Below are positions 920 to 63,420 of a stretch of 64,000 nucleotides of DNA, one piece after another. Each line of letters begins with the position of its first letter. The first letter of the stretch is position 1. The DNA comes from Squalus acanthias. Taxonomy: Eukaryota. The notes beneath the pieces were generated by a model. It worked only from the letters and a program-made list of their open reading frames with translations, had not been told where the DNA came from and ran no database searches. Where the stretch lies: positions 101,682,001 through 101,746,000 of the forward strand of contig CM059431.1 of the NCBI GenBank assembly GCA_030390025.1. The letters are read 5' to 3'. The position numbers were made by a program, and so were the translations under genes.

Positions 920-2602
920 CTGAGACTGATCCCGAACTTCCCTTACACTGCCCGTCCCCCGTCCCCCCCCACATGTACTTTCTCAAACTGGGTCACAGGA
1001 TAGCCGTCAGCATTGGGAACGCTGGCAGATATTTGTCCCCTTTTTAACCCAGAAACAATGAGTAGAATTGCAGTGCCCTGGCCCAGATCGGCTCACTCGA
1101 CACAGAACATAAGAAATAGGAGCAGGAGTCGGCCATTCGGCCCCTCGAGCCTGCTCCGCCATTCAATAAGATCATGGCTGATCTTCTACCTCATCTCCAG
1201 TTTCCTGCACTATCCCCATATCCCTTGATTCCCCATGAGTCCAAAAATCTATCGATCTCAGTCTTGAATATACTCAACGGCTCAGCCTCCACAGCCCTCT
1301 GGGGCAGAGAATTCCGTAGATTCACCACCCTCTGAGTGAAGGAATTCCTCCTCACCTCATCTTAAATGACCGACCCCTTATCCTGAGACTGTGACCCCTG
1401 GTTCTAGACTCTCCAGCCAGGGGAAAACAACCTCTCAGCATCTACCCTGTCATGCCCTTTAAGAATTTTATACATTTCAATGAGATCACCTAAACAGAGT
1501 TAAAGAAAGAAATACTTGCATTTCTATAGCGCCTTTCACAACCACCGGACATCCTAAAGCGCTTTACGGCCAATGAAGTATTTTTGAAGTGTAGTCACTG
1601 TTGTAATGTAGGAAACGCGGCAGGCAATTTGCGCACAGCAAGCTCCCACAAACAGCAATGTGATAATGACCGGATAATCTGTTTTTGTTATGTTGGTTGA
1701 GGGATAAATATTGGCCCAGGACACCGGGGAGAACTCACCTGCTCTTCTTCGAAATAGTGGCCGTGGGAGCTTTTACATCCGCCCGAGAGGGCAGACGGGG
1801 CCTCGGTTTAACGTCTCATGCGAAAGACGAATTGAACCTGGAGTTTACCTGCTCTGGGTAGCTCAACTGCACGTTGGCTAGACTCGATCTGCTGACCAAC
1901 TTGCAAAGCGACAATAATATTTAAAAAAGTGACTGCTTCACCTGAATACGGTGACTCATACAATTTTATGCTGCATAAGTTAGTAGTTACATACCATTAT
2001 CAAGGAGATCGGGGATCTCTTGATGATGTTGGGGGCGTGGAAGTCACGCAAACGTATTCCCTACCTCCTGCCCCCCTCCCCCACCACCCCTGCAGGCCCA
2101 GGAAGATCGGGCTAATTGTGCCTCTGCTGATTCTGTGGCCAAGGTCAATTAACGCAGCTCAGACCAAGGACTGAATTCAGGGCCTTTCTCTCCTTTACAT
2201 CTGGAGGTCTTCTATGCCCTCTTGTATCACACGTCCGTGTTGGGTTTGTCAGGATGGCTAACTTAGAAAGTTACTTTTCCTGTAACAGAAGTTAATTTCT
2301 TTTTACACTTTTGAAAATAAGAGCAGATGTCAAAGATCAAAATCAGCTCATTTAAGAGGCCGAGTTAATAAAGAACATAAGAACATAAGAAATAGGAGCA
2401 GGAGTAGGCCAATCGGCCCCTCGAGCCTGCTCCGCCATTCAATAAGATCATGGCTGATCTGATCCTAACCGCCAATCTACTATCACAGAACCATCTCCTG
2501 CATCTAACAGAATTGCACACACGAAATAGGAGCAGAATCAGGCTACACGGTCCCTGGGCCCGCTCCACTATCCACAGGGCCATGACCGATCCGAACCTAG
2601 AC

Positions 2603-5554
2603 TCATGTCCAAATTCCTGCCCGCTCCCCGTAACCCTTAATGCCCTTTACTTCTAGGAAACTGTCTATTTCTGTTTTAAATTTATTTAATGATGTAGCTT
2701 CTACAGCTTTTTGTGGCAGCATATTCCATGGACCTACCACCCTCTGAGTGAAGTAGTTCCTCCTCATCTCAGTTTTGAAAGAGCAGCCCCTTATTCTAAG
2801 ACTATGTCCCCTAGTTCTAGTCTCACCCGTCATCGGAAACATCCTCCCCGCATCCACCCGATCCAACCCCTTCACAATCTTATATGTTTCAATAAGATCG
2901 CCTCTCATTCTTCTGAACTCCAATGAGTAGAGTCCCAATCTACCCAACCTCTCCTCATATGACCACCCCCTCATCCCCGGGATTAACCGAGTGAACCTTT
3001 TTTGCACTGCCTCGAGAGCAAGGATGTCTTTCCTTAAGTAAGGACACCAAAACTGTATGCAGTATTCCAGGTGCGGTCTCACCAATACCTTGTACAACTG
3101 AAGCAATACCTCCCTATTTTTATATTCTATCCCCCTAGCAATGAAAGCCAACATTCCATTTGCCTTCTTAATCACTTGCTGCACCTGCATACTAACCTTT
3201 TGAGTTTCGTGCACCAGGACCCCCAGATCCCTTTGCACTTCAGTACTCTCCAGTTTCTTGCCATTAAGATAATAAATTGCTCTAGGATTTTTCCTGCCAA
3301 AGTGCATCACCTCACACTTTCCAGTGTTGTATTCCATCTGCCAAATCTCTGCCCACTTACTTAGCCTGTCTATGTCCCCTTGCAGGTTTTTTATGTCCTC
3401 CTCACTCACTACTTTCCCTCCCATCTTTGTATCATCTGCAAATTTTGATATGTTACACTTGGTCCCTTCCTCCAAATCGTTAATATAGATTGTGAAGAGT
3501 TGGGGACCCAGCACTGACCCCTGTGGAACACCACTAGTTACTGATTGCCAGTCTGAGAATGAACCATTTATCCCAACTCTTTGCTTTCTGTTAGATAGCC
3601 AATCCTCTATCCATGCCAGAATATTACCCCCAATCCCGTGATTTTTTACCTTAAGCAATAATCTTTTGTGTGGCACCTTGTCAAATGCCTTTTGGAAGTC
3701 TAAATACACTACGTCCACTGGTTCCCCTTTATCCACTCTATATGTTACTTCCTCAAAGAACTCCAGCAAATTTGTCAAACATGACTTCCCCTTCGTAAAA
3801 CCATGCTGACTTTGTCCTATTAAATTATGATTATCCAAATGTCCTGTTACTGTTTCCTTAATAATGGACTCCAAAATTTTACCTACCACAGATGTTAGGC
3901 TAACCGGTCTATAGTTACCAGCCTTCTGTCTACTGCCCTTTTTAAATAAGGGTGTTACATTAGCAGTTTTCCAGTCTGCCGGGACCTTAGCGGAATCCAG
4001 GGAGTTTTGAAAAATTATTACCAATGCATCTACAATCCCTACCGCCACTTCCTTCAAGACTCTAGGATGTAAGCCATCAGGTCCAGGTGATTTATCCGCC
4101 TTGAGTCCCATTATTTTACCGAGTACCACTTCCTTAGTGATTTTGATCGTGTTTAGCTCCTCTCCCCCTATAGCCCCCTGTTTGTCCAGTGTTGGGATAT
4201 TCTTAGTGTCCTCTACTGTAAAGACTGATACAAAATATTCATTCAGTGTTTTTGCCATCTCCATATTTCCCACCATTAATTTCCCGGTCTCATCCTCTAA
4301 GGGACCAACATTTACTTTAGCCACCCTTTTTCTTTTTATATAACTATAAAAACTCCTACTATCTGTTTTTATATTTTTTGCTAATTTACTTTCATAATCT
4401 ATCTTCCCTTTCTTAATCAATCTTTTTGTTATTTTTTGCTGCCTTTTAAAGTTTTCCCAATCCTCTGTCCTCCCACTAGATTTCGCTACCTTATATGCCC
4501 TTGTTTTTAGTCGAATACTATCCTTAATTTCTTTACTTAGCCACGGATGACTGTCCTTTCTTTTACACCCTTTTCTTTTCAGTGGAATATATTTTTTTTG
4601 GAAGTTGTAAAATAACTCCTTGAATGTACACCACTGATCATGTGTCGTCTTACCCTTTAATCTATTTTCCCAATCCACTCTACTCAATTCCGCTCGCATA
4701 CCTTCATAGTCTCCTTTATTCAAGCTTAGCACGCTTGTTTGAGATCCAACCTTCTCACCCTCTAATTGAATATGGAATTCAACCATGTTATGGTCACTCA
4801 TTCCAAGGGGATCCTTTACTAGGACATTTTTAATTAATCCTGTCTCGTTACACAGGACCAGATCTAAGGTTGCTTGCCCCCTGGTCGGTTCAGTTACATA
4901 CTGCTCAAGAAACCCATCCCTAATACACTCAATGAACTCATCCTCAAGGCAGCCCTGCCCCATTTGATTTGTCCAATTAATATGATAGTTAAAATCCCCC
5001 ATAATTATAGATGTTCCCTTATTACATGCCTCAACTATTTCCTGATTGATACTCCGTCCAACAGAGTTGCAACTGTTCGGAGGCCTATAGACTACGCCCA
5101 CTAGTGTTTTTTTCCCCTTATTATTCCTTATCTCCACCCAAACTGTTTCATTATCATGATTTTTTGACCCAATATCATTACTCTGTATTACAGTGATTCC
5201 TTCCTTTATTAACACAGCCACCCCACCTCCCCTTCCTTCCTGCCTGTCCTTCCTGATCGTTAAATAACCTGGTATGTTTAATTCCCAGGCATTGTCACCC
5301 TGCAGCCATGTTTCTGTAATGGCCACAATATCATAACCATATGTAGTTATTTGTGCCATTAACTCGTCTATTTTGTTACGAATGCTACGTGCATTCAGAT
5401 AGAGAACTTTCAAATATGCTTTGTGGCACTTAGTTCCTGCTTTTTCACTTTTTACCACTTTACCTTTTACTCCACACACTCTGTCCCTTCCTGCCACGCT
5501 CTGATTTGTGATTCCCCTACTGCTACCTATGTCTATGACCCTCTCTGTTGTCAT
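2603..5554 (-). CDS. CR1 ORF2: APE endonuclease plus reverse transcriptase (983 aa, uninterrupted)
   Basis: Endonuclease motifs YLNARS, ITETWL, VYRPP, MGDFN, LDLV and SDH; RT motifs YLDFQKAFDKV, GVPQGSVLGP and FADD. Confidence 0.95.
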   Translation of the reverse strand: MTTERVIDIGSSRGITNQSVAGRDRVCGVKGKVVKSEKAGTKCHKAYLKVLYLNARSIRNKIDELMAQITTYGYDIVAITETWLQGDNAWELNIPGYLTIRKDRQEGRGGGVAVLIKEGITVIQSNDIGSKNHDNETVWVEIRNNKGKKTLVGVVYRPPNSCNSVGRSINQEIVEACNKGTSIIMGDFNYHINWTNQMGQGCLEDEFIECIRDGFLEQYVTEPTRGQATLDLVLCNETGLIKNVLVKDPLGMSDHNMVEFHIQLEGEKVGSQTSVLSLNKGDYEGMRAELSRVDWENRLKGKTTHDQWCTFKELFYNFQKKYIPLKRKGCKRKDSHPWLSKEIKDSIRLKTRAYKVAKSSGRTEDWENFKRQQKITKRLIKKGKIDYESKLAKNIKTDSRSFYSYIKRKRVAKVNVGPLEDETGKLMVGNMEMAKTLNEYFVSVFTVEDTKNIPTLDKQGAIGGEELNTIKITKEVVLGKIMGLKADKSPGPDGLHPRVLKEVAVGIVDALVIIFQNSLDSAKVPADWKTANVTPLFKKGSRQKAGNYRPVSLTSVVGKILESIIKETVTGHLDNHNLIGQSQHGFTKGKSCLTNLLEFFEEVTYRVDKGEPVDVVYLDFQKAFDKVPHKRLLLKVKNHGIGGNILAWIEDWLSNRKQRVGINGSFSDWQSVTSGVPQGSVLGPQLFTIYINDLEEGTKCNISKFADDTKMGGKVVSEEDIKNLQGDIDRLSKWAEIWQMEYNTGKCEVMHFGRKNPRAIYYLNGKKLESTEVQRDLGVLVHETQKVSMQVQQVIKKANGMLAFIARGIEYKNREVLLQLYKVLVRPHLEYCIQFWCPYLRKDILALEAVQKRFTRLIPGMRGWSYEERLGRLGLYSLEFRRMRGDLIETYKIVKGLDRVDAGRMFPMTGETRTRGHSLRIRGCSFKTEMRRNYFTQRVVGPWNMLPQKAVEATSLNKFKTEIDSFLEVKGIKGYGERAGIWT

Positions 5555-5592
5555 TTTTATTTTTTGCTCTCTTGAAACCTCCCCCCCACTAA

Positions 5593-6141
5593 TTAGTTTA
5601 AAGCCCTCTCCACAGCCCTAGTTATTCGATTCGCCAGGACACTAGTCCCAGCACTGGCCAAGTGAAGTCCGTCCCAACGGAACAGCTCTCTCCTGCCCCA
5701 GTACTGGTGCCAGTGTCCCAAGAAGCAAAACCCATTTTTCCCACACCAGTCTTTGAGCCACGCATTCAACTCCCTGATTTTATTTACCCTAGCCAAATTT
5801 GCTCGTGGCTCAGGTAGTAATCCAGAGATTATTACCCTCGAGGTTCTGCTTTTTAATTTGGCCCCTAGCTGCTCAAACTCCCTCAGCAGAACCTCTTTCC
5901 TTGTCCTATCTATGTCATTGGTACCAACATGGACCACGACAACTGGATCCTCCCCCTCCCACTCCAAGTTTCTCTCCAGCCCAGAGGAGATGTCCTTAAC
6001 CCTGGCACCGGGCAGGCAACACAGCCTTCGGGACTCTCGCTCTTGGCTGCAAAGAACCCTATCTATCCCCCTAATGATACTATCCCCTACCACTACAACA
6101 TTTCTTTTTACTCCCCCCACTTGAATGGCCCCCCTTACCAC
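5593..6141 (-). CDS. CR1 ORF1 C-terminal SGNH/GDSL esterase domain (5'-truncated)
   Basis: VVVGDSI, CLPGA, HVGTND and DGLHL motifs; ends ERALN-stop. Confidence 0.9.
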   Translation of the reverse strand: MVRGAIQVGGVKRNVVVVGDSIIRGIDRVLCSQERESRRLCCLPGARVKDISSGLERNLEWEGEDPVVVVHVGTNDIDRTRKEVLLREFEQLGAKLKSRTSRVIISGLLPEPRANLARVNKIRELNAWLKDWCGKNGFCFLGHWHQYWGRRELFRWDGLHLASAGTSVLANRITRAVERALN

Positions 6142-7219
6142 GGTGCTGTGGCCAGGTTGCTCATCCTCCCTAAAGAAAATGGAACTTGATTGTATATTCC
6201 AGGCTGAGAACGATAGATTTTTGAACTCTAGGGGAATCGAGGGATATGGAGATCGGGGGGGGGGGGGGGGGGGGGGGGGGGAAAGTGGAGTTGAGGTCGA
6301 TGATCAGCCATGATCTTATTGAATGGCGGAGCAGGCTCGAGGGGCCGTACGGCCGACTCCTGCTCCTAATTCTTATGTTCTTATGACTGAAGTATCAAAA
6401 ATAAAAGCATTCCATGTGTCAGAATCATTCTGTACTGAAGTTCGGAAATTTATAGGAAATAATGATATGCTAATCACAGGCAAGAAAGCAACCAAACGTG
6501 TTACAATGCCTTTCAAGCTCTACTGCGGCCAAAAAAATTCTTCACATTCGTTCATCAGACAGAAAAAGCTCTCAAGTGGTTCTCCTTTTATCTATCTCCC
6601 CTTGCGATTAGTAATTTGAGGTGCAGCAGAGTGTTATTTGTGATGCCAGATACCTATGGAGCAAAACTAAACCGAGCACTGCTTAAAAATTGGATGTGAA
6701 AAAGTTCAAACAGTCACTGTACAGAACAAAAGCAATGAAACTCTCAGTCTCTGTCTCTGATTGAGAGTGGCGGCTGGGACCTCGACTTTGAAGAAGCTTT
6801 GGGTGGGGGGAAGCAGTAACACAATATGCTGCTTTAAGTAGGTTTGAGATATTTGACAACAGGTGCAGAAGGTGTTATACAATCCTGGTTGGGTCAAAGA
6901 ACAACAAACCTGCAACGTTCAGGCACTAATAAATCCGATAGGGAATTCGGGAGAAACTTCTTTACCCAGAGAGTGGTGAGAATGTGGAACTCGCTACCAC
7001 AGGGAGTGGTTGAAGCGAATAGTATGGATGCATTTAAGGGGAAGCTGGATAAACACATGAGGGAAAAGGGAATAGAAGGTTATGCTGATAGAGTGAGATG
7101 ATGTCGTGGTGGGAGGAGGCTCGAGTGGAGCATAAACACCGGCATAGACATGTTGGGCGGAATGGCCTGTTTCTGTGCTGTACATTCTATGCAAAAGGCA
7201 GTTGCACATTTTATGATGA

Positions 7220-11664: not shown

Positions 11665-13115
11665 AGCCAGTGGCTCAGTGGGCAGCACCCTCGCCTCTGA
11701 GTCAGAAGGTTGTGGGTTCAAGTCCCAACTCCAGACACTTGAGCACAAAATCTAGGCTGACACTCCCAGTGCAGTACTGAGGGAGCGCCGCACTGTTGGA
11801 GGGGCAGTACTGAGGGAGTGCTGCACTGTCAGAGGGGCAGTACTGAGGGAGTGCTGCACTGTCGGAGGGGCAGTACTGAGGGAGTGCTGCACTGTCAGAG
11901 GGGCAGTACTGAGGGAGCGCTGCACTGTCGGAGGGGCAGTACTGAGGGAGCGCAGCACTGTCGGAGGGGCAGTACTGAGGGAGTGCTGCACTGTCAGAGG
12001 GGCAGTACTGAGGGAGCGCTGCACTGTCAGAGGGGCAGTACTGAGGGAGTGCCGCACTGTCGGAGGGGCAGTACTGAGGGAGCGCCACACTGTCGGAGGG
12101 GCAGTACTGAGGGAGTGCCGCACTGTCAGAGGGGCAGTACTGAGGGAGTGCCGCACTGTCGGAGGGGCAGTACTGAGGGAGTGCCGCACTGTCGGAGGGG
12201 CAGTACTGAGGGAGCGCCGCACTGTCGGAGGGTCAGTACTGAGGGAGCGCCGCACTGTCGGAGGGGAAGTACTGAGGGAGCGCTGCACTGTCGGAGGGTC
12301 AGTACTGAGGGAGTGCCGCACTGTCGGAGGGGCAGTACTGAGGGAGCGCCGCACTGTCAGAGGGGCAGTACTGAGGGAGCGCAGCACTGTCAGAGGGGCA
12401 GTACTGAGGGAGCGCCGCACTGTCAGAGGGGCAGTACTGAGGGAGCGCAGCACTGTCGGAGGGGCAGTACTGAGGGAGCGCCGCACTGTCAGAGGGGCAG
12501 TACTGAGGGAGCGCCGCACTGTAGGAGGGGCAGTACTGAGGGAGCGCCGCACTGTCGGAGGGGCAGTACTGAGGGAGCGCCGCACTGTCGGAGGGGCAGT
12601 ACTGAGGGAGCGCCGCACTGTCAGAGGGGCAGTACTGAGGGAGCGCCGCACTGTCGGAGGGGCAGTACTGAGGGAGAGCCTGCACTGTCAGGAGGGGCAG
12701 TACTGAGGGAGCGCCGCACTGTCGGAGGGGCAGTGCTGAGGGAGCGCCGCACTGTCGGAGGGGCAGTACTGAGGGAGCGCCGCACTGTCGGAAGGGCCGT
12801 CTTTCGGATGAGATATTAAACCCAGGCCCCGTCTACTCTCTCAGGTGAACGTAAAAGATCCCACGGCACTATTTCGAAGAAGAGCAGGGGAGTTCTCCCC
12901 AGTGTCCTGGCCAATATTTATCCCTCAACCCACGTAAAAAAAACCAGATTATCTGGTCATTATTTGTGGGAGCTTGCTGTGCGCAAATTGGCTGCCGCGT
13001 TTCCTACATTACAACAGTGACTCCAATTCAAAAGTACTTCATTGGCTGTAAAGTGCTTTGGGACGTCCGATGGTCGTGAAAGGTGCTGTAGAAATGCAAG
13101 TCTGTCTTTTTTTGT
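11665..13115 (+). mobile_element. Full-length tRNA-headed Deu-domain SINE with expanded internal minisatellite
   Basis: Pol III A box TGGCTCAGTGG at 11671-11681 and B box GGTTCAAGTCC at 11715-11725. Deu-like core (ctttcggatgagatattaaacccaggccc...aaagatcccacggcactatttcgaagaagagcagggg); 3' tail shared with the L2 fragments. Other copies or halves at about 1502-1829, 15095-15470, 25001-25735, 43345-43795, 53005-53420 and 63752-64000. Confidence 0.8.
11772..12792 (+). repeat. 33-bp minisatellite, about 31 units (cagtactgagggagcgccgcactgtcggagggg)
   Basis: Directly visible tandem array; 11-aa periodicity in the ORF track. Confidence 0.95.
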
Positions 13116-30908: not shown

Positions 30909-33900
30909 CACGGAGTGCAGATCGGAACAGAGTGTTAAGCTGCGAGTTTGGTGAGTGAGGGAGTGAGGGGAGGGAGGTGTTCCTTTCTTTTTCCATCTTT
31001 GTCAGCTTCCAGGAGAGCAGGAACTAAAAAGCTGCACAAGAGGGGACAGAGAACCAGCGGTGAGTATTTCTACAGTATTTCTACATTCCAGTCATTAAAG
31101 TAAAAGTAAGGTCTCTAGTTTAGAGTAAGTAGTGTTTAAAGGGAAGTAAGGTCCCTAGTGTATTTAATATTCTTTAATTTAAAGGGAGTAACTTAAGGGT
31201 AGGACATGGCAGGGCAGCTCGGCAGCATGGACTGCTCCTCCTGTGCTATGTTGGAAGTCGGGGATACTTTAGGTGTCCAGGGTGAACACATGTGCAGGAA
31301 GTGTCTCCAGCTGCAGCTACTCGAAATCCGCGTTTCGGAGCTGGAGCGGCGGCTGGAGTCACTGTGGAGCATCCGCGAAGCTGAGATCTTCGTGGATAGC
31401 ACGTTTAACAAGGTGGTCACACCGCAGGTAAAGAGTGCACAGGCAGACAGGGAATGGGTGACCGCCAGACAGAGTAAAAGAACAAGGAAGGTAGTGCAGG
31501 AGTCCCCTGGGTCCATCTCTCTCTCTGACAGATTTTCCCTTTTTGGATACTGATGGGGGAGATGGTTTCTCAGGGGAATGCAGCAAGAGCCAAGTCCGTG
31601 GCACTAAGAGTGGCTCAATTGCACAGTAGGGGAAGAAAAAGAGTGGGAGAGCAATAGTGAAAGGGGATTCTATCGAAAGGCGAACAGATAGACGTTTCTG
31701 TGGCCACAGACGTGACTCCAGGATGGTATGTTGCCTCCCTGGTGCCAGGGTCAAGGATGTCACTGAACAGGCTGCAGGGCATTCTGAAGGGGGAGGGCGA
31801 ACAGTCAGAGGTCGTGGTTCACATTGGTACCAACGACATGGGTAGAAAGAGGGATGAGGTCCTGCAACAAGAATTTAGGGAGCTAGGTAGCAGATTAAAA
31901 AGCAGGACCTCAAAGGTTGTAATCTCTGGATTACTCCCGGTGCCACGTGCTAGTGAGTATAGGAATAGAAGGATAGAGCAGATGAATGCGTGGCTAAAGA
32001 GTTGGTGCAGGAGGGAGGGCTTTAGTTCCCTGGATCACTGGGTCTGCTTCTGGAGAAGGTGGGACCTGTACAAGTCGGACGGGTTGCACCTGAACTGGAA
32101 CGGGACCAACATCCTTGCGGGGAGGTTTGCTAGTACTGTTGGGGGGGGGTTTAAACTAACTTGGCAGGGGGATGGGATACGGAGTGGAGCTATAGTAGGG
32201 GGTGATGCACAGCCAAATATAGAGGAAAAAACAAGTCAGCCTGGAAGGCAGAGCAAATATGTAACGGCACAAGGGAGTATGGCAAGGCTGGATGGCATTT
32301 ATTTTAATGCAAGGAGTCTTGCGAGTAAGGCAGATGAATTGAAGGTGTTGATGAACACATGGGAGTATGATATTGTTGCTATCACAGAGACATGGTTGAG
32401 GGAGGGGCAGGACTGGCAGCTCAATATTCCGGGGTCTAGAATCTTCAGGCGAGACAGAGGGGGGTGTAAAAGAGGAAGGGGATGTCGCAATATTAATCAA
32501 GGAGTCAATTACTGCTGTAAGGAGGGATGATATCTTAGCAGGTTCCTCTAATAAGGCCATATGGGTAGAACTTAAAAACAAAAAGGGGGCAAGCACTTTG
32601 CTGGGAGTGTACTATAGGCCCCCAAACAGTCAGGGGGAGATAGAGGAATAGATATGTAGGCAAATCTCAGAGAAGTGTAGAAATAATAGGGTAATAATAG
32701 TAGGGGATTTCAACTTCCCCAATATTAACTGGGATAGTCAGTGTGTGAAAGGCTTAGAGGGTGCGGAATTCTTAAAGTGCATCCAGGAGAGCTTTTTGAG
32801 CCAGCATGTAGAAAGTCCTACAAGAGAGGGGGCGGTACTGGACCTAATTCTAGGGAATGTAGCCGGGCAAGTAGTAGAAGTGTTAGTAGGAGAGCATTTT
32901 GGTGACAGTGACTATAATTCAGTGAGATTTAAGGTAGTCATGGAAAAGGACAAAGATGGACCGGAAATAAAGGTTCTAAATTGGGGGAAGGCCGATTTTA
33001 ATATGATAAGGCAGGATCTGGCCAAAGTGTACTGGGATCAGCTACTTGTAGGAAAATCCACATCAGAGCAGTGGGAGTCTTTCAGAAAGGAAATAGAGAG
33101 AGTACAACGCCAACATGTTCCCGTAAAGGTCAAGGGTGGGACCAACAAGCCCAGGGAACCCTGGATGTCAAGGGATATACGAGAATGGATTAGGAAAAAA
33201 AGGGAGGCTTTTGGCAGATACAAAGGACTAAAAACAGTGGAAGCCCTAGAGGAGTATAGAAAGTGCAGGGGGTTACTTAACAAAAAGAAATTAGGAGAGC
33301 GAAGAGGGGGCATGAAAAAACACTGGCGGGCAAAATAAAGGAAAATCCCAAGGTGTTTTATAAGTATATTAAGGGCAAGAGGATAACCAGGGAAAGAGTA
33401 GGGCCCATTAGGGACCAAAGTGGCAATCTGTGTGTAGAGCCGGAAGATGTAGGCGAGGTTTTAAATGAATATTTTGCATCTGAGTTCACTATGGAGAAGG
33501 ACGATGTAGACACAGAAAGGTGTGTGGATGAGGGTAGTGCAGTTGATGTGGTCTACACGGACTTCAGTCAGGCTTTTGACAAAGTCCCGCATGGGAGACT
33601 GGTCAAGAAGGTAAGAGCCCATGGGATCCAGGGCAACTTGGCACATTGGATCCAAAATTGGCTTAGTTGCAGGAGGCAGAGGGTGATGGTCGAATGTTGT
33701 TTTTGTGACTGGAAGCCTGTGTCCAGTGGTGTACCAGCAGGGATCGGTGCTGGGTCCTTTGCTGTTTGTAGTGTACATTAATGATTTCGATATGAATGTA
33801 GGAGGTATGATCAGTAAGTTCGCAGATGACACGAAAATTGGTGGGGTGGTAAATAGCGAGGAGGGAAGCCTCAGGCTACAGGACGATATAGACGGGTTGG

Positions 33901-55993: not shown

Positions 55994-57037
55994 GTGTGTG
56001 AGACTTGGAGGGGAACTTGGAGGTGGTGGTGTTCCCATGCGCCTGCTGCCCTTGTCCTTCTAGGTGGAAGAGGTCACGGGTTTGGGAGGTGTTGTCGAAG
56101 AAGCCTTGGCGAGTTGCTGCAGTGCATCTTGTAGATGGTACACACTGCAGCCACGGTACGCCGGTGGTGGAGGGAGTGAATGTTTAAGGTGGTGGATGGG
56201 GTGCCAATCAAGCGGGCTGCTGTGTCCTGGATGGGTTCGAGCTTCTTGACTGTTGTTTGAGCTGCACTCATCCAGGCAAGTGGAGAATATTCCATCACAC
56301 TCCTGGCTTGTGCCTTGCAGATGGTGGAAAGGCTTTGATTACTTCCTAGCCTCTGCCGGTCTGGAAATTGCTCGTTACGGTTGCATCATGCTATTGCGCC
56401 CAAGCCATGCATTAGCCTTGTGTACATTATTTCCAGATTATTGGTGATTAAAGTCCAATCACAAATTTCCAATCTTTCCAAACTTGATTGAATTTTTTGA
56501 GGAGGTAACAAGGAGGGTAGATGAGGGTAGTGCGTTTGATGTAGTGCATATGGACTTTAGCAAGGCTTTTGATAAGGTTCCACATGGCAGACTGGTCACG
56601 AAGTTAAAAGCCCATGGGATCCAGGGCAAAGTGTCAAGTTGGATTACTTGTGTCTTGCAGATGGTGGAAATATAGGTAACGCGGCGGGCAATTTGCGCAC
56701 AGCAAGCTCACACAGACAGCAATGTGTTAAATGACCGGATCATCCTTTTTTTATATAATAAAAACAGAATATGCTGGAAACACTCAGCAGGTCAGGCCTG
56801 AACCACTAACTCTGTTTCTCTCTGCACCGATGCTGCCTGACCTTCTGAGTGTTACTTTGCTTCTTTCTTTTAAAAAAAAAAGTGATGTTGGTTGAGGGAT
56901 AAATATTGGCCCAGGACACCGGGGAGAACTCCCCTGCTCTTCTTCGAAATAGTGCCGTGGGTGTGTTAGGTCCACCTGAGCGAGCAGACAGGGGGTCTCG
57001 GGTTTAACCTCTCATCTGGAAAAACAACACACAGGCA

Positions 57038-58795
57038 GAGTGCAGCACTCCCTCAGCACTACCCCTCCGACAGTGCAGCACTCCCTCAGCACTGCCCCTC
57101 CGACAGTGCAGCACTCCCTCAGCACTACCCCTCCGACAGTGCGGCGCTCCCTCAGCACTACCCCTCCGACAGTGCAGCACTCCCTCAGTACTGACCCTCC
57201 GACAGTGCAGCACTCCCTCAGTACTGACCCTCCGACAGTGCAGCACTCCCTCAGCACTACCCCTCCGACAGTGCAGCACTCCCTCAGTACTGACCCTCCG
57301 ACAGTGCAGCACTCCCTCAGTACTGACCCTCCGACAGTGCAGCACTCCCTCAGCACTACCCCTCCGACAGTGCAGCGCTCCCTCAGTACTGACCCTCCGA
57401 CAGTGCAGCACTCCCTCAGTACTGACCCTCCGACAGTGCAGCACTCCCTCAGCACTACCCCTCCGACAGTGCAGCACTCCCTCAGCACTGCCCCACCGAC
57501 AGTGCGGCGCTCCCTCAGTACTGCCCCTCCGGCAGTGCGGCGCTCCCTCAGTACTACCCCTCCGACAGTGCAGCGCTCCCTCAGTACTGCCCTCCGACAG
57601 TGCGGCGCTCCCTCAGTACCGCCCCTCCGACAGTGCGGTGCTCCCTCAGTACCGCCCCTCCGACAGTGCAGCACTCCCTCAGTACCGCCCCTCCGACAGT
57701 GCGGCGCTCCCTCAGCACTGCCCCTCTGACAGTGCGGCGCTCCCTCAGTACTGCCCCACCGTCAGTAAGGCGCTCCCTCAGTACTACCCCTCTGACAGTG
57801 CGGCGCTCCCTCAGCACTGCCCCTCTGACAGTGCGGCGCTCCCTCAGTACTGTCCCTCCGACAGTGCGGCACTCCCTCAGTACTGCCCCTCTGACAGTAA
57901 GGCGCTCCCTCAGTACTGCCCCTCCGACAGTGCAGCGCTACCTCAGTACCGCCCCTCCGACAGTGCGGCGCTCCCTCAGTACTGTCCCTCCGACAGTGCG
58001 GCACTCCCTCAGTACTGCCCCTCCGACAGTAAGGCGCTCCCTCAGTACTGCCCCTCCGACAGTGCGGCGCTCCCTCAGTACTGCCCCTCCGACAGTGCGG
58101 CCCTCCGACAGTGCGGCGCCCCCTCAGTACAGCCCCTCCAACAGTGCGGCGCTCCCTCAGCACTGCCCCTCCGACAGTGCGGCGCTCCCTCAGCACTGCC
58201 CCTCTGACAGTGCAGCGCTCCCTCAGTACTGTCCCTCTGACAGTGCGGCGCTCCCTCAGTACTGCCCCTCCGACAGTGCGGCGCTCCCTCAGTACTGCCC
58301 CTCCGACAGTGCAGCGCTCCCTCAGTACAGCCCCTCCGACAGTGCAGCGCTCCCTCAGTACTGCCCCTCCGACAGTGCAGGCGCTCCCTCAGTACTGCCC
58401 CTCCGACAGTGCGGCGCTCCCTCAGTACTGCCCCTCCGACAGTGCAGCGCTCCCTCAGTACTGCCCCTCCGACAGTGCAGCGCTCCCTCCGTACTGCCCC
58501 TCCGACAGTGCGGCGCTCCCTCAGTACTGCCCCTCCGACAGTGCAGCGCTCCCTCAGTACAGCCCTCTGACAGTGCGGTGCTCCCTCAGTACTGCCCCTC
58601 CGACAGTGCAGCGCTCCCTCAGTACTGCCCCTCCGACAGTGCAGCTCTCCCTCAGCTACTGCCCCTCGACAGTGCAGCGCTCCCTCAGTACTGCCCCTCC
58701 GACAGTGCGGCGCTCCCTCAGTACTGCCCCTCTGACAGTGCGGCGCTCCCTCAGTACTGCCCCTCTGACAGTGCAGCACTCCCTCAGTACTGCCC
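57038..58795 (-). repeat. 33-bp SINE-derived minisatellite, about 53 units, between two outward-facing Deu-SINE 3' halves
   Basis: Directly visible; SINE 3' half on - at about 56675-57030 and on + at about 58803-59160. Confidence 0.93.
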
Positions 58796-59569
58796 GTCGG
58801 AGGGGCAGTACTGAGGGAGCGCTGCACTGTCGGAGGTGCTGTCTTTCGGATGAGACTTTAAACCGAGGCCCCGTCTGCTCTCTCAGGTGGACGTAAAAGA
58901 TCCCATGGCCACTATTTCGAAGAAGAGCAGAGGGAGTGCTCCCCGGTGTCCTGAGGCCAATATTTATCCTCAACCAATATCACTAAACGCAGATTATCTG
59001 GTCATTATCACATTGCTGTTTGTGGGAGCTTGCTGTGCGCAAATTGGCTGCCACGTTTCCTACATTACAACAGTGACTACACTTCAAAAGCACTTTATTG
59101 GCTGTAAAGCACTTTGGACGACCAGTGGTTATTAAAGGCGCTATATAAATGCAAATCTCTCTTTTTTAACACACAGTTGATGGATTTAATGTTTCTCTGT
59201 TGAAGACTTTTCCATGTTTCAGTATTTACTTCAGTTTCTATAATAACTTTAACTTCTAAACCTTAATGCAGCTACTTTATATGCAGGAGCCTATTTATTT
59301 AGAAAGGAATCGCGTTCACTGTCTTTATTTCCAGATGTGTCTTTTTTTTTAACCCCCCCCCCCCCCCTAAAACATTATCCACTCTCATTTTCAGTTTATA
59401 AAAAGGATTGCACTCCACTGGAAATGCGACTGAATTCAGCGCTGTGGGGGGCTTTCTGTTAAGACGTTTTGTCATCGATGTAAAGTTCGTGTCTGCAAAT
59501 GGTGACTTGCCAAAAGTTAATGTAATCTCTGAGCAAATCGTTTAAACCGCCTTGTTTCTGCCCCTGTAG

Positions 59570-60964: not shown

Positions 60965-63420
60965 TCAGAATGGACCGTTGTCCAGTGCTTCCAAGTTGTG
61001 TGTCATCTGCAAATTTTGAAATTGTGCCCCGTACACCCACGTCCAAGTCATTAATATATATATATCAAGAAAAGCAGTGGTCCTAGAACCGACCCCCGGG
61101 GAACACCACTGTATACCTTCCTCCAGTCCGAAAAACAACCATTCACCACTACTCTGTTTCCTGTCACTTAGCCAATTTTGTATCCATGCTGCCATTGTCC
61201 CTTTTATTCCATGGGCTTCAACTTTGTCAAACGCCTTTTGGAAATCCATGTACACTACGTCAACCGCATTGCCCTCATCAACCCTCTCTGTTATCTCATC
61301 GTAAAACTCAATCGAGTTGGTTAAACACGATTTGCCTTTAACAAATCCGCGCTGGCTTTCCTTAATTAATCCACACTTGTCCAAGTGACTGTTAATTTTG
61401 TCCCTGATTATTGTTTCTAAAAGATTCTCCACTACCAAGGTTAAACTGACTGGCCTGTAGTTGCTGGGTTTATCTTTACACCCTTTTTTGAACAAGGGTG
61501 TAACATTTGCAATTTTCCAGTCTTTTGGCACCACCGCCGTTTCGAAGGAGGATTGGAAGATTATGGCCAGTACCTCCGCGATTTCTTCCTTCACTTCCCT
61601 CAGCGTCCTAGGATGCATCCCATCTGGTCTTGGTGACTTATCAACTTTAAGTACAGCCAGCCTTTCTAGTACCTCTATCAATTTTTATCCCATCCAGTAT
61701 CTCCACGACCTCCTCCTTCACTATGTCTATGGCAGCATCTTCTTCCTTGATGAAGACAGATGTAAAGTACTCATTTAGCACCTCAGCCATGCCCTCTGCC
61801 TCCATGCGTAGGTCTCCTTTTTGGTCCCTAATCGGCCCCACCCCTCCTCTTACTACCCGTTTACTATGCCTATAGAAGACTTTTGGATTACCTGTTATGT
61901 TAGCTGCCATTCTATTCTCATACCCTCTCTTTGCCCCTCTTATTTTCTTTTTCACTTCTCATCTGAACTTTCTATATTTAGCCTGATTATCAGATGTATT
62001 CTCGACCTGACATCTGTCATACGCCCTCTTTTTCTGCTTCTTCTTACTCTCTATCTCTTTCGTCATCCAGGGAGCTCTGACTTTAGTTGCCCTACCTTTC
62101 CCCCTGGTGGGAATGTACCTCGACTGTACTCAAACCATCTCCTCGATTACAGTTTTGCCTGCCAATCTTTGATTACAATTTACCCGGGCCAGATCCGTTC
62201 TCATCCCACTGAAATTGGCCTTCTTCCAATTAAGTATTTTTACTCTAGATTGCTCCCTGTCCTTTTCCATAGCTAATCTAAACCTTATGATACTATGATC
62301 ACTGTTCCCTAAATGTTCCCCTACTGACACTTGCTCCACTTGACCCACCTCATTCCCCAGAACCAGATCCAGCAATGCCTCCTTCCTCGTTGGGCCGGAA
62401 ACATACTGATTAAGAAAGTTCTTCTGAACATGCTTCAGAAATTCTTCCCCTTCTCTGCCCTTTACACTATTATGATCCTAGTCTATATTAGGATAGTTGA
62501 AGTCCCCCATTATTGCTACTCTATAGTTCTTGCACCTCTCTGTAATTTCTCTGCAAATTTGCTCCTCCATATCTTTCCCACTATTTGGTGGTCTATAGAA
62601 TACACCTGGTAGTGTAATGGCACCTCTATTATTTCTTAACTCTAGCCATATAGATTCTGTCCTTGACCCCTCCAGGACATCTTCTCTCTCCAGCACTGTA
62701 ACATTCTCCTTAATCAGTACTCCCACACCACCTCCCATCTTTCCTTCCCTATCTTTCCTGAACACCTTATAACCAGGAATATTTCATACCCAATCCTGCC
62801 CTTTTTTGAGCCAGGTCTCAGTTATTGTCACAACACCATATTCCCATGTGGCTATTTGTGCCTGCAGCTCACTTACCTTGTTTACTACGCTTCGTGCGTT
62901 CACATACGTACACTGTAAACCCATCTTAGACCATCCTGTATTCTCTCTTAGTCTGACCCCATCTAAGACCTTACTATTTCTTGCTTTTGTGCTATCTGTC
63001 TCTCCCAATCCTTTGAACACTCTATTTCTCCTTTCTCATGTTACATCCTGGTGCCCATCCCTCTGCCAAATTAGTTTAAACCCTCCCCAACCACAGTAGC
63101 AAACTTCCCCACGAGGATATTGGTTTCGGCCCTGTTGAGGTTCAACCTGTCCGGCCTGAACAGATCCCACCTCCCCCAGAACCGGTCCCAGGAATCTGAA
63201 GCCTTCCCTTCTGCACCATCTCTCCAGTCACACATTCATCTGCTCTATCCTCCTATTTCTATACTCGCTCATGCGTGACACCGGGAGTAATCCGGAGATT
63301 ACTACCTTTGAAGTCCTGCTTTTTAATCTCTTTCCTAGGTCCCTGAAATCTCTCTGCAGGAGCTCATCCCTCTTTCTACCCTGTGTCGTTGGCACCGATA
63401 TGGACCACGACCTCTGGCTG
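60965..63420 (-). mobile_element. Older decayed CR1 (copy C): esterase end, endonuclease and part of RT
   Basis: Fragments YVNARSVVNKV, YRPPNS, MGDFNYP, LGNSDH and YMDFQKAFDKV, with several frameshifts and deletions. Confidence 0.88.

Follow-up and report, generated by a model that had tools for sequence, protein, structure and literature searches.

A conserved U_UUA_AAC motif at the ORF1/ORF2 junction of CR1-group LINEs suggests expression of ORF2 by −1 ribosomal frameshifting

Introduction

We describe the junction between the two open reading frames (ORFs) of CR1-group long interspersed nuclear elements (LINEs), three copies of which lie in a stretch of 64,000 nucleotides (nt) of the Squalus acanthias genome (contig CM059431.1, positions 101,682,001 to 101,746,000; hereafter the window). 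ORF1 of these elements, which codes for an esterase, ends in the codons NNU UUA AAC directly ahead of its stop, and ORF2, which codes for an endonuclease and a reverse transcriptase, lies in the −1 frame. We propose that CR1-group LINEs use −1 programmed ribosomal frameshifting on the slippery heptamer U_UUA_AAC to make an ORF1-ORF2 fusion protein, a reading to which the comparative evidence leads us to assign a probability of roughly two in three. Frameshifting is the simplest account because the heptamer is invariant and in register, the silent U ahead of the Leu codon is fixed, the −1 phase is constant, the −1 frame is open from there onwards, and the AUG of ORF2 is dispensable.

How the second ORF of LINEs is translated has been called unclear in reviews (PMC3708506, PMC3894237, PMC5009743). 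Expression of a fusion by frameshifting had been proposed in an initial annotation of the window; every comparative check that it put forward supports the proposal, which remains one drawn from sequence.

Results

The junction and layout of copy 1

On the minus strand, ORF1 of the first window copy (copy 1) reads GAG AGG GCT TTA AAC TAA at its end and is followed by TTAGTGGGGGGGAGG...AAAATAAAAATG (in full TTAGTGGGGGGGAGGTTTCAAGAGAGCAAAAAATAAAAATG). The heptamer is thus made up of the final two sense codons of ORF1 (Leu-Asn) and the third base of the GCT codon ahead of them. The stop-to-stop frames, both on the minus strand, span 5593..6303 for ORF1 and 2603..5617 for ORF2; ORF2 therefore lies at −1 relative to ORF1 with an overlap of 8 codons, and the −1 frame opens just 5 codons upstream of the heptamer. 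The minus-strand reading and the stop-to-stop frames together confirm the junction, the register of the heptamer and the phase of ORF2 as given in the initial annotation, and its count of 16 stop-free codons ahead of the copy 1 ATG is correct. Its figures for the three window copies – linkers of 67, 50 and 58 codons, with the first ATG at codons 17, 44 and 53 – were reproduced. The sequence TTTAAACTAA has three occurrences in the window, where 0.25 would be expected, a count of three being reached in 2 of 100 shuffles.

By its sequence, copy 1 has the layout of an esterase-ORF1 LINE of the CR1 group. Pfam recognizes Lipase_GDSL_2 in ORF1 (E = 1.7e-10) and both Exo_endo_phos (E = 1.7e-13) and RVT_1 (E = 8e-31) in ORF2, and the sole solved structure matched by ORF1 is that of the ZfL2-1 ORF1 esterase (4c1b, at 6e-30). 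A short 8-nt repeat resembling TTATGTTC lies close to the 3′ end of the element, as in the tandem 8-nt repeats that we take to be the CR1-type 3′ end. A CR1-type 3′ octamer is named in the abstract of PMC2612034. The assignment to CR1 over L2, which has no reverse-transcriptase tree behind it, is favoured because the chondrichthyan L2 elements surveyed in PMC13343379 are reported to lack ORF1.

Conservation of the junction in the shark genome

Loci in the S. acanthias genome (3.7 Gb) were gathered by protein queries. For the family of copy 1, hereafter the young family, the best 150 places of about 70,000 first-look candidates are all 100% identical to the query (the last 121 residues of ORF1), and the family is extremely abundant in the genome. 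Copy 1 itself (2371-6171, minus strand) lacks about the first 126 codons of ORF1, yet is 99.76% identical to a full-length relative; this identity, together with the at least 150 copies identical over the query, marks the family as very young. In full-length form the young-family ORF1 has 318 amino acids (aa); it carries a Cys/His motif at the N-terminus, a stretch resembling a coiled coil, and the esterase. The same junction is present in 30 of 30 fetched loci. One young-family locus (L005:1856-2070) has a 107-nt internal duplication of the ORF1 end and junction, giving two TTTAAACTAA sites.

In a second family (family 2), whose ORF1 tail is ...GGGLN, the junction is present in all 26 loci, of 30, that were matched by the search pattern. 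The G run directly ahead of the heptamer is hypervariable in this family (L031-L060), ranging from 7 to 15 G: among the 26 loci it is G8 in 7, G9 in 6, G7 in 4, longer in 6 and interrupted in 3. Copies with G8 have separate ORFs at −1, and in those with G9 the ORFs are joined in one frame, open over 680-866 aa. A single open frame of 1163 aa was also seen in one copy of another family.

Further junctions were sampled as short stretches round ORF1 ends, with matches chosen for differing ORF length and identity. TTTAAAC followed by TAA or TAG was found in 18 of 20 of these, the two exceptions being single-base variants in decayed copies, and another nine junctions yielded the heptamer in eight and TTTAAAT in one. 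The junctions from this genome represent about 11 lineages with ORF1 tails such as RALN, RTLN, GGLN, EDLN and EHLN, and with linkers that are largely unalignable. NNT TTA AAC TAR is thus present in every ORF1-bearing CR1 lineage sampled, single-base variants in a few copies aside. Conservation of the heptamer over synonymous Leu and Asn codons, which the initial annotation had put forward as a check, holds in all lineages sampled, here and in other organisms.

Constraint on the nucleotide sequence

An ungapped alignment anchored on the heptamer was made for 15 lineages, nine from S. acanthias and six from other sources. The nine-letter block T TTA AAC TA does not vary among the 15, and the 35 positions upstream of it are 33-87% conserved, third codon positions mostly at 40-60%. 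Elsewhere in these ORF1s TTA accounts for 24 of 175 Leu codons, AAC for 21 of 53 Asn codons, and T for 21.9% of third positions; NNT-TTA-AAC is therefore expected in only about 1.2% of lineages that merely keep x-Leu-Asn (about 0.012 per lineage).

A second conserved feature lies downstream. The letters GGGG occupy +16 to +19 from the Leu codon, 10 nt past the heptamer, in 15 of 15 lineages. Over 19 junctions the G run has a length of 4-16 and begins 8-10 nt past the heptamer, which is 5-7 nt past the stop and replaces the distance of 6-9 nt downstream in the initial annotation. The base ahead of the invariant GGG codon is always G, and the codon that holds this base specifies Gln, Lys, Glu, Arg or Gly according to lineage; a G that is fixed across codons for different residues suggests that it is the RNA that is constrained. 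Purines predominate past the slip site, and no sequence with which the G tract could pair is conserved; we regard the tract as a candidate linear stimulator. Its length varies among copies, from G7 to G16 in L006, L071, L076 and L077.

Phase, openness of the linker and the AUG of ORF2

The −1 frame between the heptamer and the endonuclease motif contains no stops in 851 codons of 15 copies chosen for an intact junction, compared with 64 and 113 stops in the other two frames. Decayed copies were left out of this count (L065, L074, L076, L077, L084, L090 and copy 3 of the window); these carry stops or frame breaks in the linker, and mostly elsewhere as well. Both the stop-free −1 frame and the constancy of phase had been named in the initial annotation as points to check, and both hold: linkers are 39, 44, 47, 52, 54, 68, 69, 71 or 74 codons long, and ORF2 departs from −1 in none of the intact copies sampled. 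Upstream of the slip site the −1 frame is open for just 1-37 codons with no AUG inside, and ORF2 therefore cannot start there.

Downstream, the position of the first AUG varies (codon 5, 17, 19, 20, 22, 23, 26 or 44), and some copies have none ahead of the endonuclease domain. Such an AUG is missing from L134, L135, L137 and L139 (which form one family), from L136 and L141, from L078 and L080, and, in other organisms, from L081, L083 and L087. In the family of L134, L135, L137 and L139, open copies have no Met over at least 130 translated −1 codons, well into the endonuclease domain. A strict need of ORF2 for its own AUG, which the initial annotation had held would tell against frameshifting, is contradicted by these several lineages.

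Other organisms and the C-termini of ORF1 proteins

In the protein collection, ORF1 has relatives in sharks, rays, a chimaera, a mormyrid and a bichir, and nearly all of them (34-78% identity) end in x-Leu-Asn. A profile search of a protein library clustered at 50% identity gave 150 ORF1 representatives, which were realigned to the profile and of which 108 have a complete C-terminus. Asn is the final residue in 79 of the 108, with LN in 62, GN in 10 and KN in 3. Among the 62, the residue ahead of Leu is one that lacks an NNU codon (Lys, Glu, Gln or Met) in a single protein, as against 15 at the position before (Fisher p = 2e-4). This scarcity is predicted if a U is required ahead of UUA, and a constraint on the peptide predicts no such thing.

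Scanning metagenomes with the ORF1 alignment produced 52 loci, of which 27 and then 7 were examined. An ORF1 3′ end is visible in 14 loci. TTTAAAC stands there in each of them, with TAG next in 11 and TGA, TAA and TGC next in one each. In six of the 14 (L081, L082, L083, L086, L087 and L096) the −1 frame is stop-free into the endonuclease domain. Three of these six carry an endonuclease of the ...YTNARSMGNKQEELE... type, which we take to be typical of amniote CR1. To the extent that this endonuclease motif identifies amniote-type CR1, the cassette is conserved from the elements of cartilaginous fish to those of amniote type.

A second class of ORF1 has different tails, QGN or SGN (P0112, P0114, P0129-P0131, P0145, P0150, P0178, P0180 and P0182), and others end in SKN or AKN (P0139, P0187 and P0201). 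As a prediction from protein tails alone, these would fit slip sites of the form G_GGA_AAC and A_AAA_AAC, respectively. DNA for the QGN and SKN tails was not found: the S. acanthias genome has the LN class only, viral contigs gave nothing, and the scan of genome contigs gave only bacterial hydrolases and one unrelated LINE of invertebrate type. One contig (L148), labelled as a Sedimenticola metagenome-assembled genome, carries a LINE of eukaryotic type, with an esterase ORF1 followed by an endonuclease in another frame and with no slippery heptamer at the ORF1 stop; it is probably host contamination of a bacterial bin.

ORF1-ORF2 fusion proteins were sought in the protein collection, with three weak matches and none across the junction. 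Some public gene models contain CR1 ORF1 under host-gene names or fused to host genes (P0014, P0085, P0108, P0039, P0043 and P0055), among them an entry labelled 40S ribosomal protein S24 isoform X2 and a model of 980 aa with the ORF1 esterase at its end; annotation chimeras are the probable explanation.

Copies 2 and 3 and other features of the window

The initial annotation had reported TTTAAAC-TAA in the same phase in two further, divergent copies at 32150-32159 and 63071-63080. The motif is present in both, and the details differ from those reported. Copy 2 has an extra G (G9 ahead of the heptamer), and its esterase frame therefore continues straight into ORF2 as a single frame of 289 aa at 31661-32530; it is an in-frame fusion variant. 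In its family the commoner form is G8, which gives ...GGGLN-stop with ORF2 at −1, and with G8 the site becomes G_GGT_TTA_AAC, two overlapping heptamers. Copy 3 has a stop at linker codon 15 and a frame break in ORF1. The coordinates of all features are collected in Table 1.

Table 1. Features of the CR1 copies in the window
Feature	Position	Strand	Remarks
Copy 1, ORF1 remnant with GDSL/SGNH esterase domain	5593..6171	-	5′-truncated at about 6171
Copy 1, slippery heptamer T_TTA_AAC	5596..5602	-	In ORF1 register; invariant in 15 of 15 aligned lineages
Copy 1, ORF1 stop TAA	5593..5595	-	Adjoins the heptamer; TAA or TAG in other lineages
Copy 1, G7 tract	5581..5587	-	Core GGGG 10 nt past the heptamer in every aligned lineage
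Copy 1, ORF2 frame, stop to stop	2603..5617	-	1004 codons: linker, apurinic-type endonuclease and reverse transcriptase
Copy 1, first in-frame ORF2 ATG	5552..5554	-	Codon 17 past the slip site; position varies among lineages, absent in some
Copy 1, short 8-nt repeat	2371..2389	-	Close to the 3′ end of the element
Copy 2, junction	32141..32159	+	G9 run, then TTTAAAC TAA
Copy 3, junction GGT TTA AAC TAA	63071..63080	-	Decayed copy

Elsewhere in the window, at 11700-12830 and 56980-58900, long stop-free frames of up to 462 aa overlap on both strands and in several frames. Overlap of this kind suggests low-complexity or repeat DNA and not genes.

Discussion

Proposed mechanism

Our proposal centres on a cassette at the end of ORF1 in a bicistronic RNA: NNU UUA AAC, then UAA or UAG, seven variable nucleotides, and GGGG. 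Most ribosomes would decode Leu-Asn and terminate, releasing the esterase-type ORF1 protein. A minority would move back a single base on U_UUA_AAC, so that tRNA-Leu pairs with UUU in place of UUA and tRNA-Asn with AAA in place of AAC, and would go on to read UUU AAA CUA (Phe-Lys-Leu) and then the poorly conserved linker, the endonuclease and the reverse transcriptase. The outcome would be a small and fixed share of ORF1-ORF2 fusion, as with retroviral Gag-Pol. We infer that slippage occurs, with what efficiency, and with what part for the adjacent stop and the G tract, from the features described above. Low efficiency would suit a LINE, which needs much less ORF2 protein than ORF1 protein.

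Compared with a canonical −1 cassette, the CR1 junction has the heptamer in register, an open −1 ORF with no upstream start, and synonymous conservation, and lacks the RNA structure. This lack is one of several points that weigh against frameshifting. Folding of 13 lineages in 57- and 97-nt windows gave no downstream hairpin or pseudoknot (z-scores of −1.6 to +1.9), which bears out the initial annotation, where no clear hairpin had been seen; there is likewise no consistent G-quadruplex, the folding energy changing in only one of the 13 lineages when quadruplexes are allowed. Assayed on its own, a slippery heptamer that lacks a strong stimulator may reach an efficiency of just a few percent. 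Substitutions among related linkers are spread 49:56:56 over the three codon positions (p = 0.74), an even split, and the linker peptide is therefore under no visible selection; only its openness is. CR1-group lineages without ORF1 exist, and related elements can therefore express ORF2 by other means. In L082 and L086 an in-frame AUG lies 2 nt past the stop and would also suit termination-reinitiation. Finally, the lineage counts are not independent, because of shared ancestry, and the intact copies were selected for the stop count.

Alternative explanations

A different reading of the same letters takes the conserved stop region as a restart signal and not a slip site, with ORF2 translated by termination-reinitiation or by an AUG-independent restart. 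Such modes have precedents, in the UAAUG coupling of SART1 and an AUG-independent mode of L1, and reviews treat ORF2 translation as open for most non-LTR (long terminal repeat) elements (PMC3708506, PMC3894237, PMC5009743). The invariant stop beside the motif and the fixed G tract behind it could position a terminating ribosome, and L082 and L086 provide a suitably placed AUG; these two loci are, however, the only ones with an AUG near the stop. Elsewhere the first AUG comes 17-44 codons on or is absent, and over all lineages that have one the distance runs from 5 to 44 codons. For restart, ORF2 need not keep to −1 and the stretch between stop and start need not be open, yet the phase is always −1 and the 15 intact copies are free of stops over the whole linker. 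It would also leave as coincidences that the conserved letters form, in register, the best-known slippery heptamer of eukaryotes and that the silent T ending the preceding codon is fixed. We therefore consider restart unlikely. Restart of the calicivirus (TURBS) type involves a motif ahead of the stop that is complementary to 18S rRNA, or a required structure; the conserved G tract of CR1 sits downstream of the stop and not upstream. Less probable again, and in our view a slim chance, is that the motif is kept for a reason other than the translation of ORF2, such as a required Leu-Asn C-terminus or an RNA or DNA signal, and that ORF2 is translated from its own AUG by internal entry. Many lineages do have a linker AUG, and the Leu-Asn ending of 62 of 108 complete ORF1s could reflect a peptide constraint on both residues. 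Such a constraint leaves unexplained the choice of TTA, the T fixed ahead of it, the fixed position of the stop and the near-absence at −3 of residues without an NNU codon, and a constraint of any unrelated kind leaves the −1 phase, the open linker and the AUG-less families without a cause.

The frames could also be joined at the level of nucleic acid, by polymerase or reverse-transcriptase slippage on G runs and with no shift by the ribosome. Family 2, with its variable G run ahead of the heptamer and its G9 copies of long single frame, and the 1163-aa frame of another family are what this would predict. The young family, however, has no G run ahead of the heptamer (GAG AGG GCT TTA AAC), and its G7 run lies past the stop, where a change of length cannot bring the frames together. 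Four public runs, for which the label of RNA is a guess, have contigs that cross the junction without a letter gained or lost; this is weak evidence, because the label is guessed and contigs hide rare variants, and neither expression nor an absence of slippage follows from it. Joining of the frames in nucleic acid seems to us very improbable as an account of the junction.

Wider implications

If frameshifting is the true account, the fusion protein would tie ORF2 physically to ORF1, a large and ancient class of elements would join the very few conserved −1 frameshift signals of vertebrate genomes, and CR1 ORF2 should not be annotated as beginning at its first AUG. A broader and more tentative conjecture, which we think possible and on balance doubtful, is that X_XXA_AAC with an adjoining stop is the ancestral mode of ORF2 expression in all LINEs with an esterase ORF1 (CR1, L2 and relatives), with U_UUA_AAC as the CR1 version and G_GGA_AAC or A_AAA_AAC for the QGN- and SKN-tailed ORF1s, and that GGGG acts as a structure-free stimulator at the mouth of the mRNA channel, through ribosomal RNA or a bound protein, possibly that of ORF1 itself. 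If so, a Gag-Pol-like fusion would underlie replication of the retrotransposon group that dominates in non-mammalian vertebrates.

Frameshifting at the ORF1/ORF2 junction of CR1 or L2 is not mentioned in the literature searched, which did not extend to the early chicken, turtle, fugu and zebrafish papers, and prior notice is possible. Frameshift wording for the CR1 junction is absent from the passages drawn on of two papers on non-LTR protein biogenesis, a 2026 survey of the CR1 group, the ZfL2-1 esterase structure paper, a survey of ORF1 in 448 elements and a general review. Among non-LTR elements, the recoding review PMC5009743 covers HeT-A, TART and L1 only, in the part drawn on here.

Comparison with known systems

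The closest parallel in form is −1 frameshifting between gag and pol of retroviruses and other LTR elements, where a canonical X_XXY_YYZ heptamer likewise stands near the end of the upstream ORF and the polymerase ORF is at −1. U_UUA_AAC is the coronavirus heptamer, and Rous sarcoma virus, with A_AAU_UUA, has its gag stop directly after the site. The CR1 junction differs from gag-pol in that its host is a non-LTR LINE whose ORF1 is of the esterase type and not Gag, and in having no downstream hairpin or pseudoknot and a GGGG 10 nt on. In animal LTR elements pol is at −1 in 28 of 51, many with classical shift sites (PMC5009743).

Among LINEs, −1 frameshifting has been reported as required for ORF2 of TRE5-A and TRE3-A of Dictyostelium (PMC5911963). 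Like CR1 these are two-ORF non-LTR elements (APE-type LINEs), and they differ in clade, host and ORF1. Bombyx SART1, with UAAUG, and human L1 are similar to CR1 in obtaining ORF2 at a low ratio from a bicistronic LINE RNA (PMC3708506, PMC5009743). They do so by restarting translation, which yields a free ORF2 protein, whereas in CR1 the AUG is 5-44 codons away or missing and both the phase and the open linker are conserved.

The heptamer of PEG10 is G_GGA_AAC. PEG10 and PNMA/Ma3 are domesticated mammalian retroelement genes with −1 frameshifting on classical heptamers (PMC5009743). The second class of ORF1 proteins, those ending Gln-Gly-Asn, would fit the PEG10 heptamer, as judged by the protein tails only; PEG10 and PNMA differ from CR1 as single-copy host genes of LTR-element origin that have pseudoknots.

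Stimulators that are not simple hairpins include the C-rich motif of arteriviruses and the 2A-bound element of cardioviruses. A stimulator can be "linear" mRNA farther from the site, acting with trans-acting factors (PMC5009743). The CR1 motif differs from the arterivirus and cardiovirus elements in being a G tract 10 nt away, and as a stimulator it is a candidate only. The CR1 junction combines a canonical slip site in a non-LTR host with a lack of RNA structure and a G tract at a fixed distance, and such a tract, if it acts without structure, could be a new type of frameshift stimulator.

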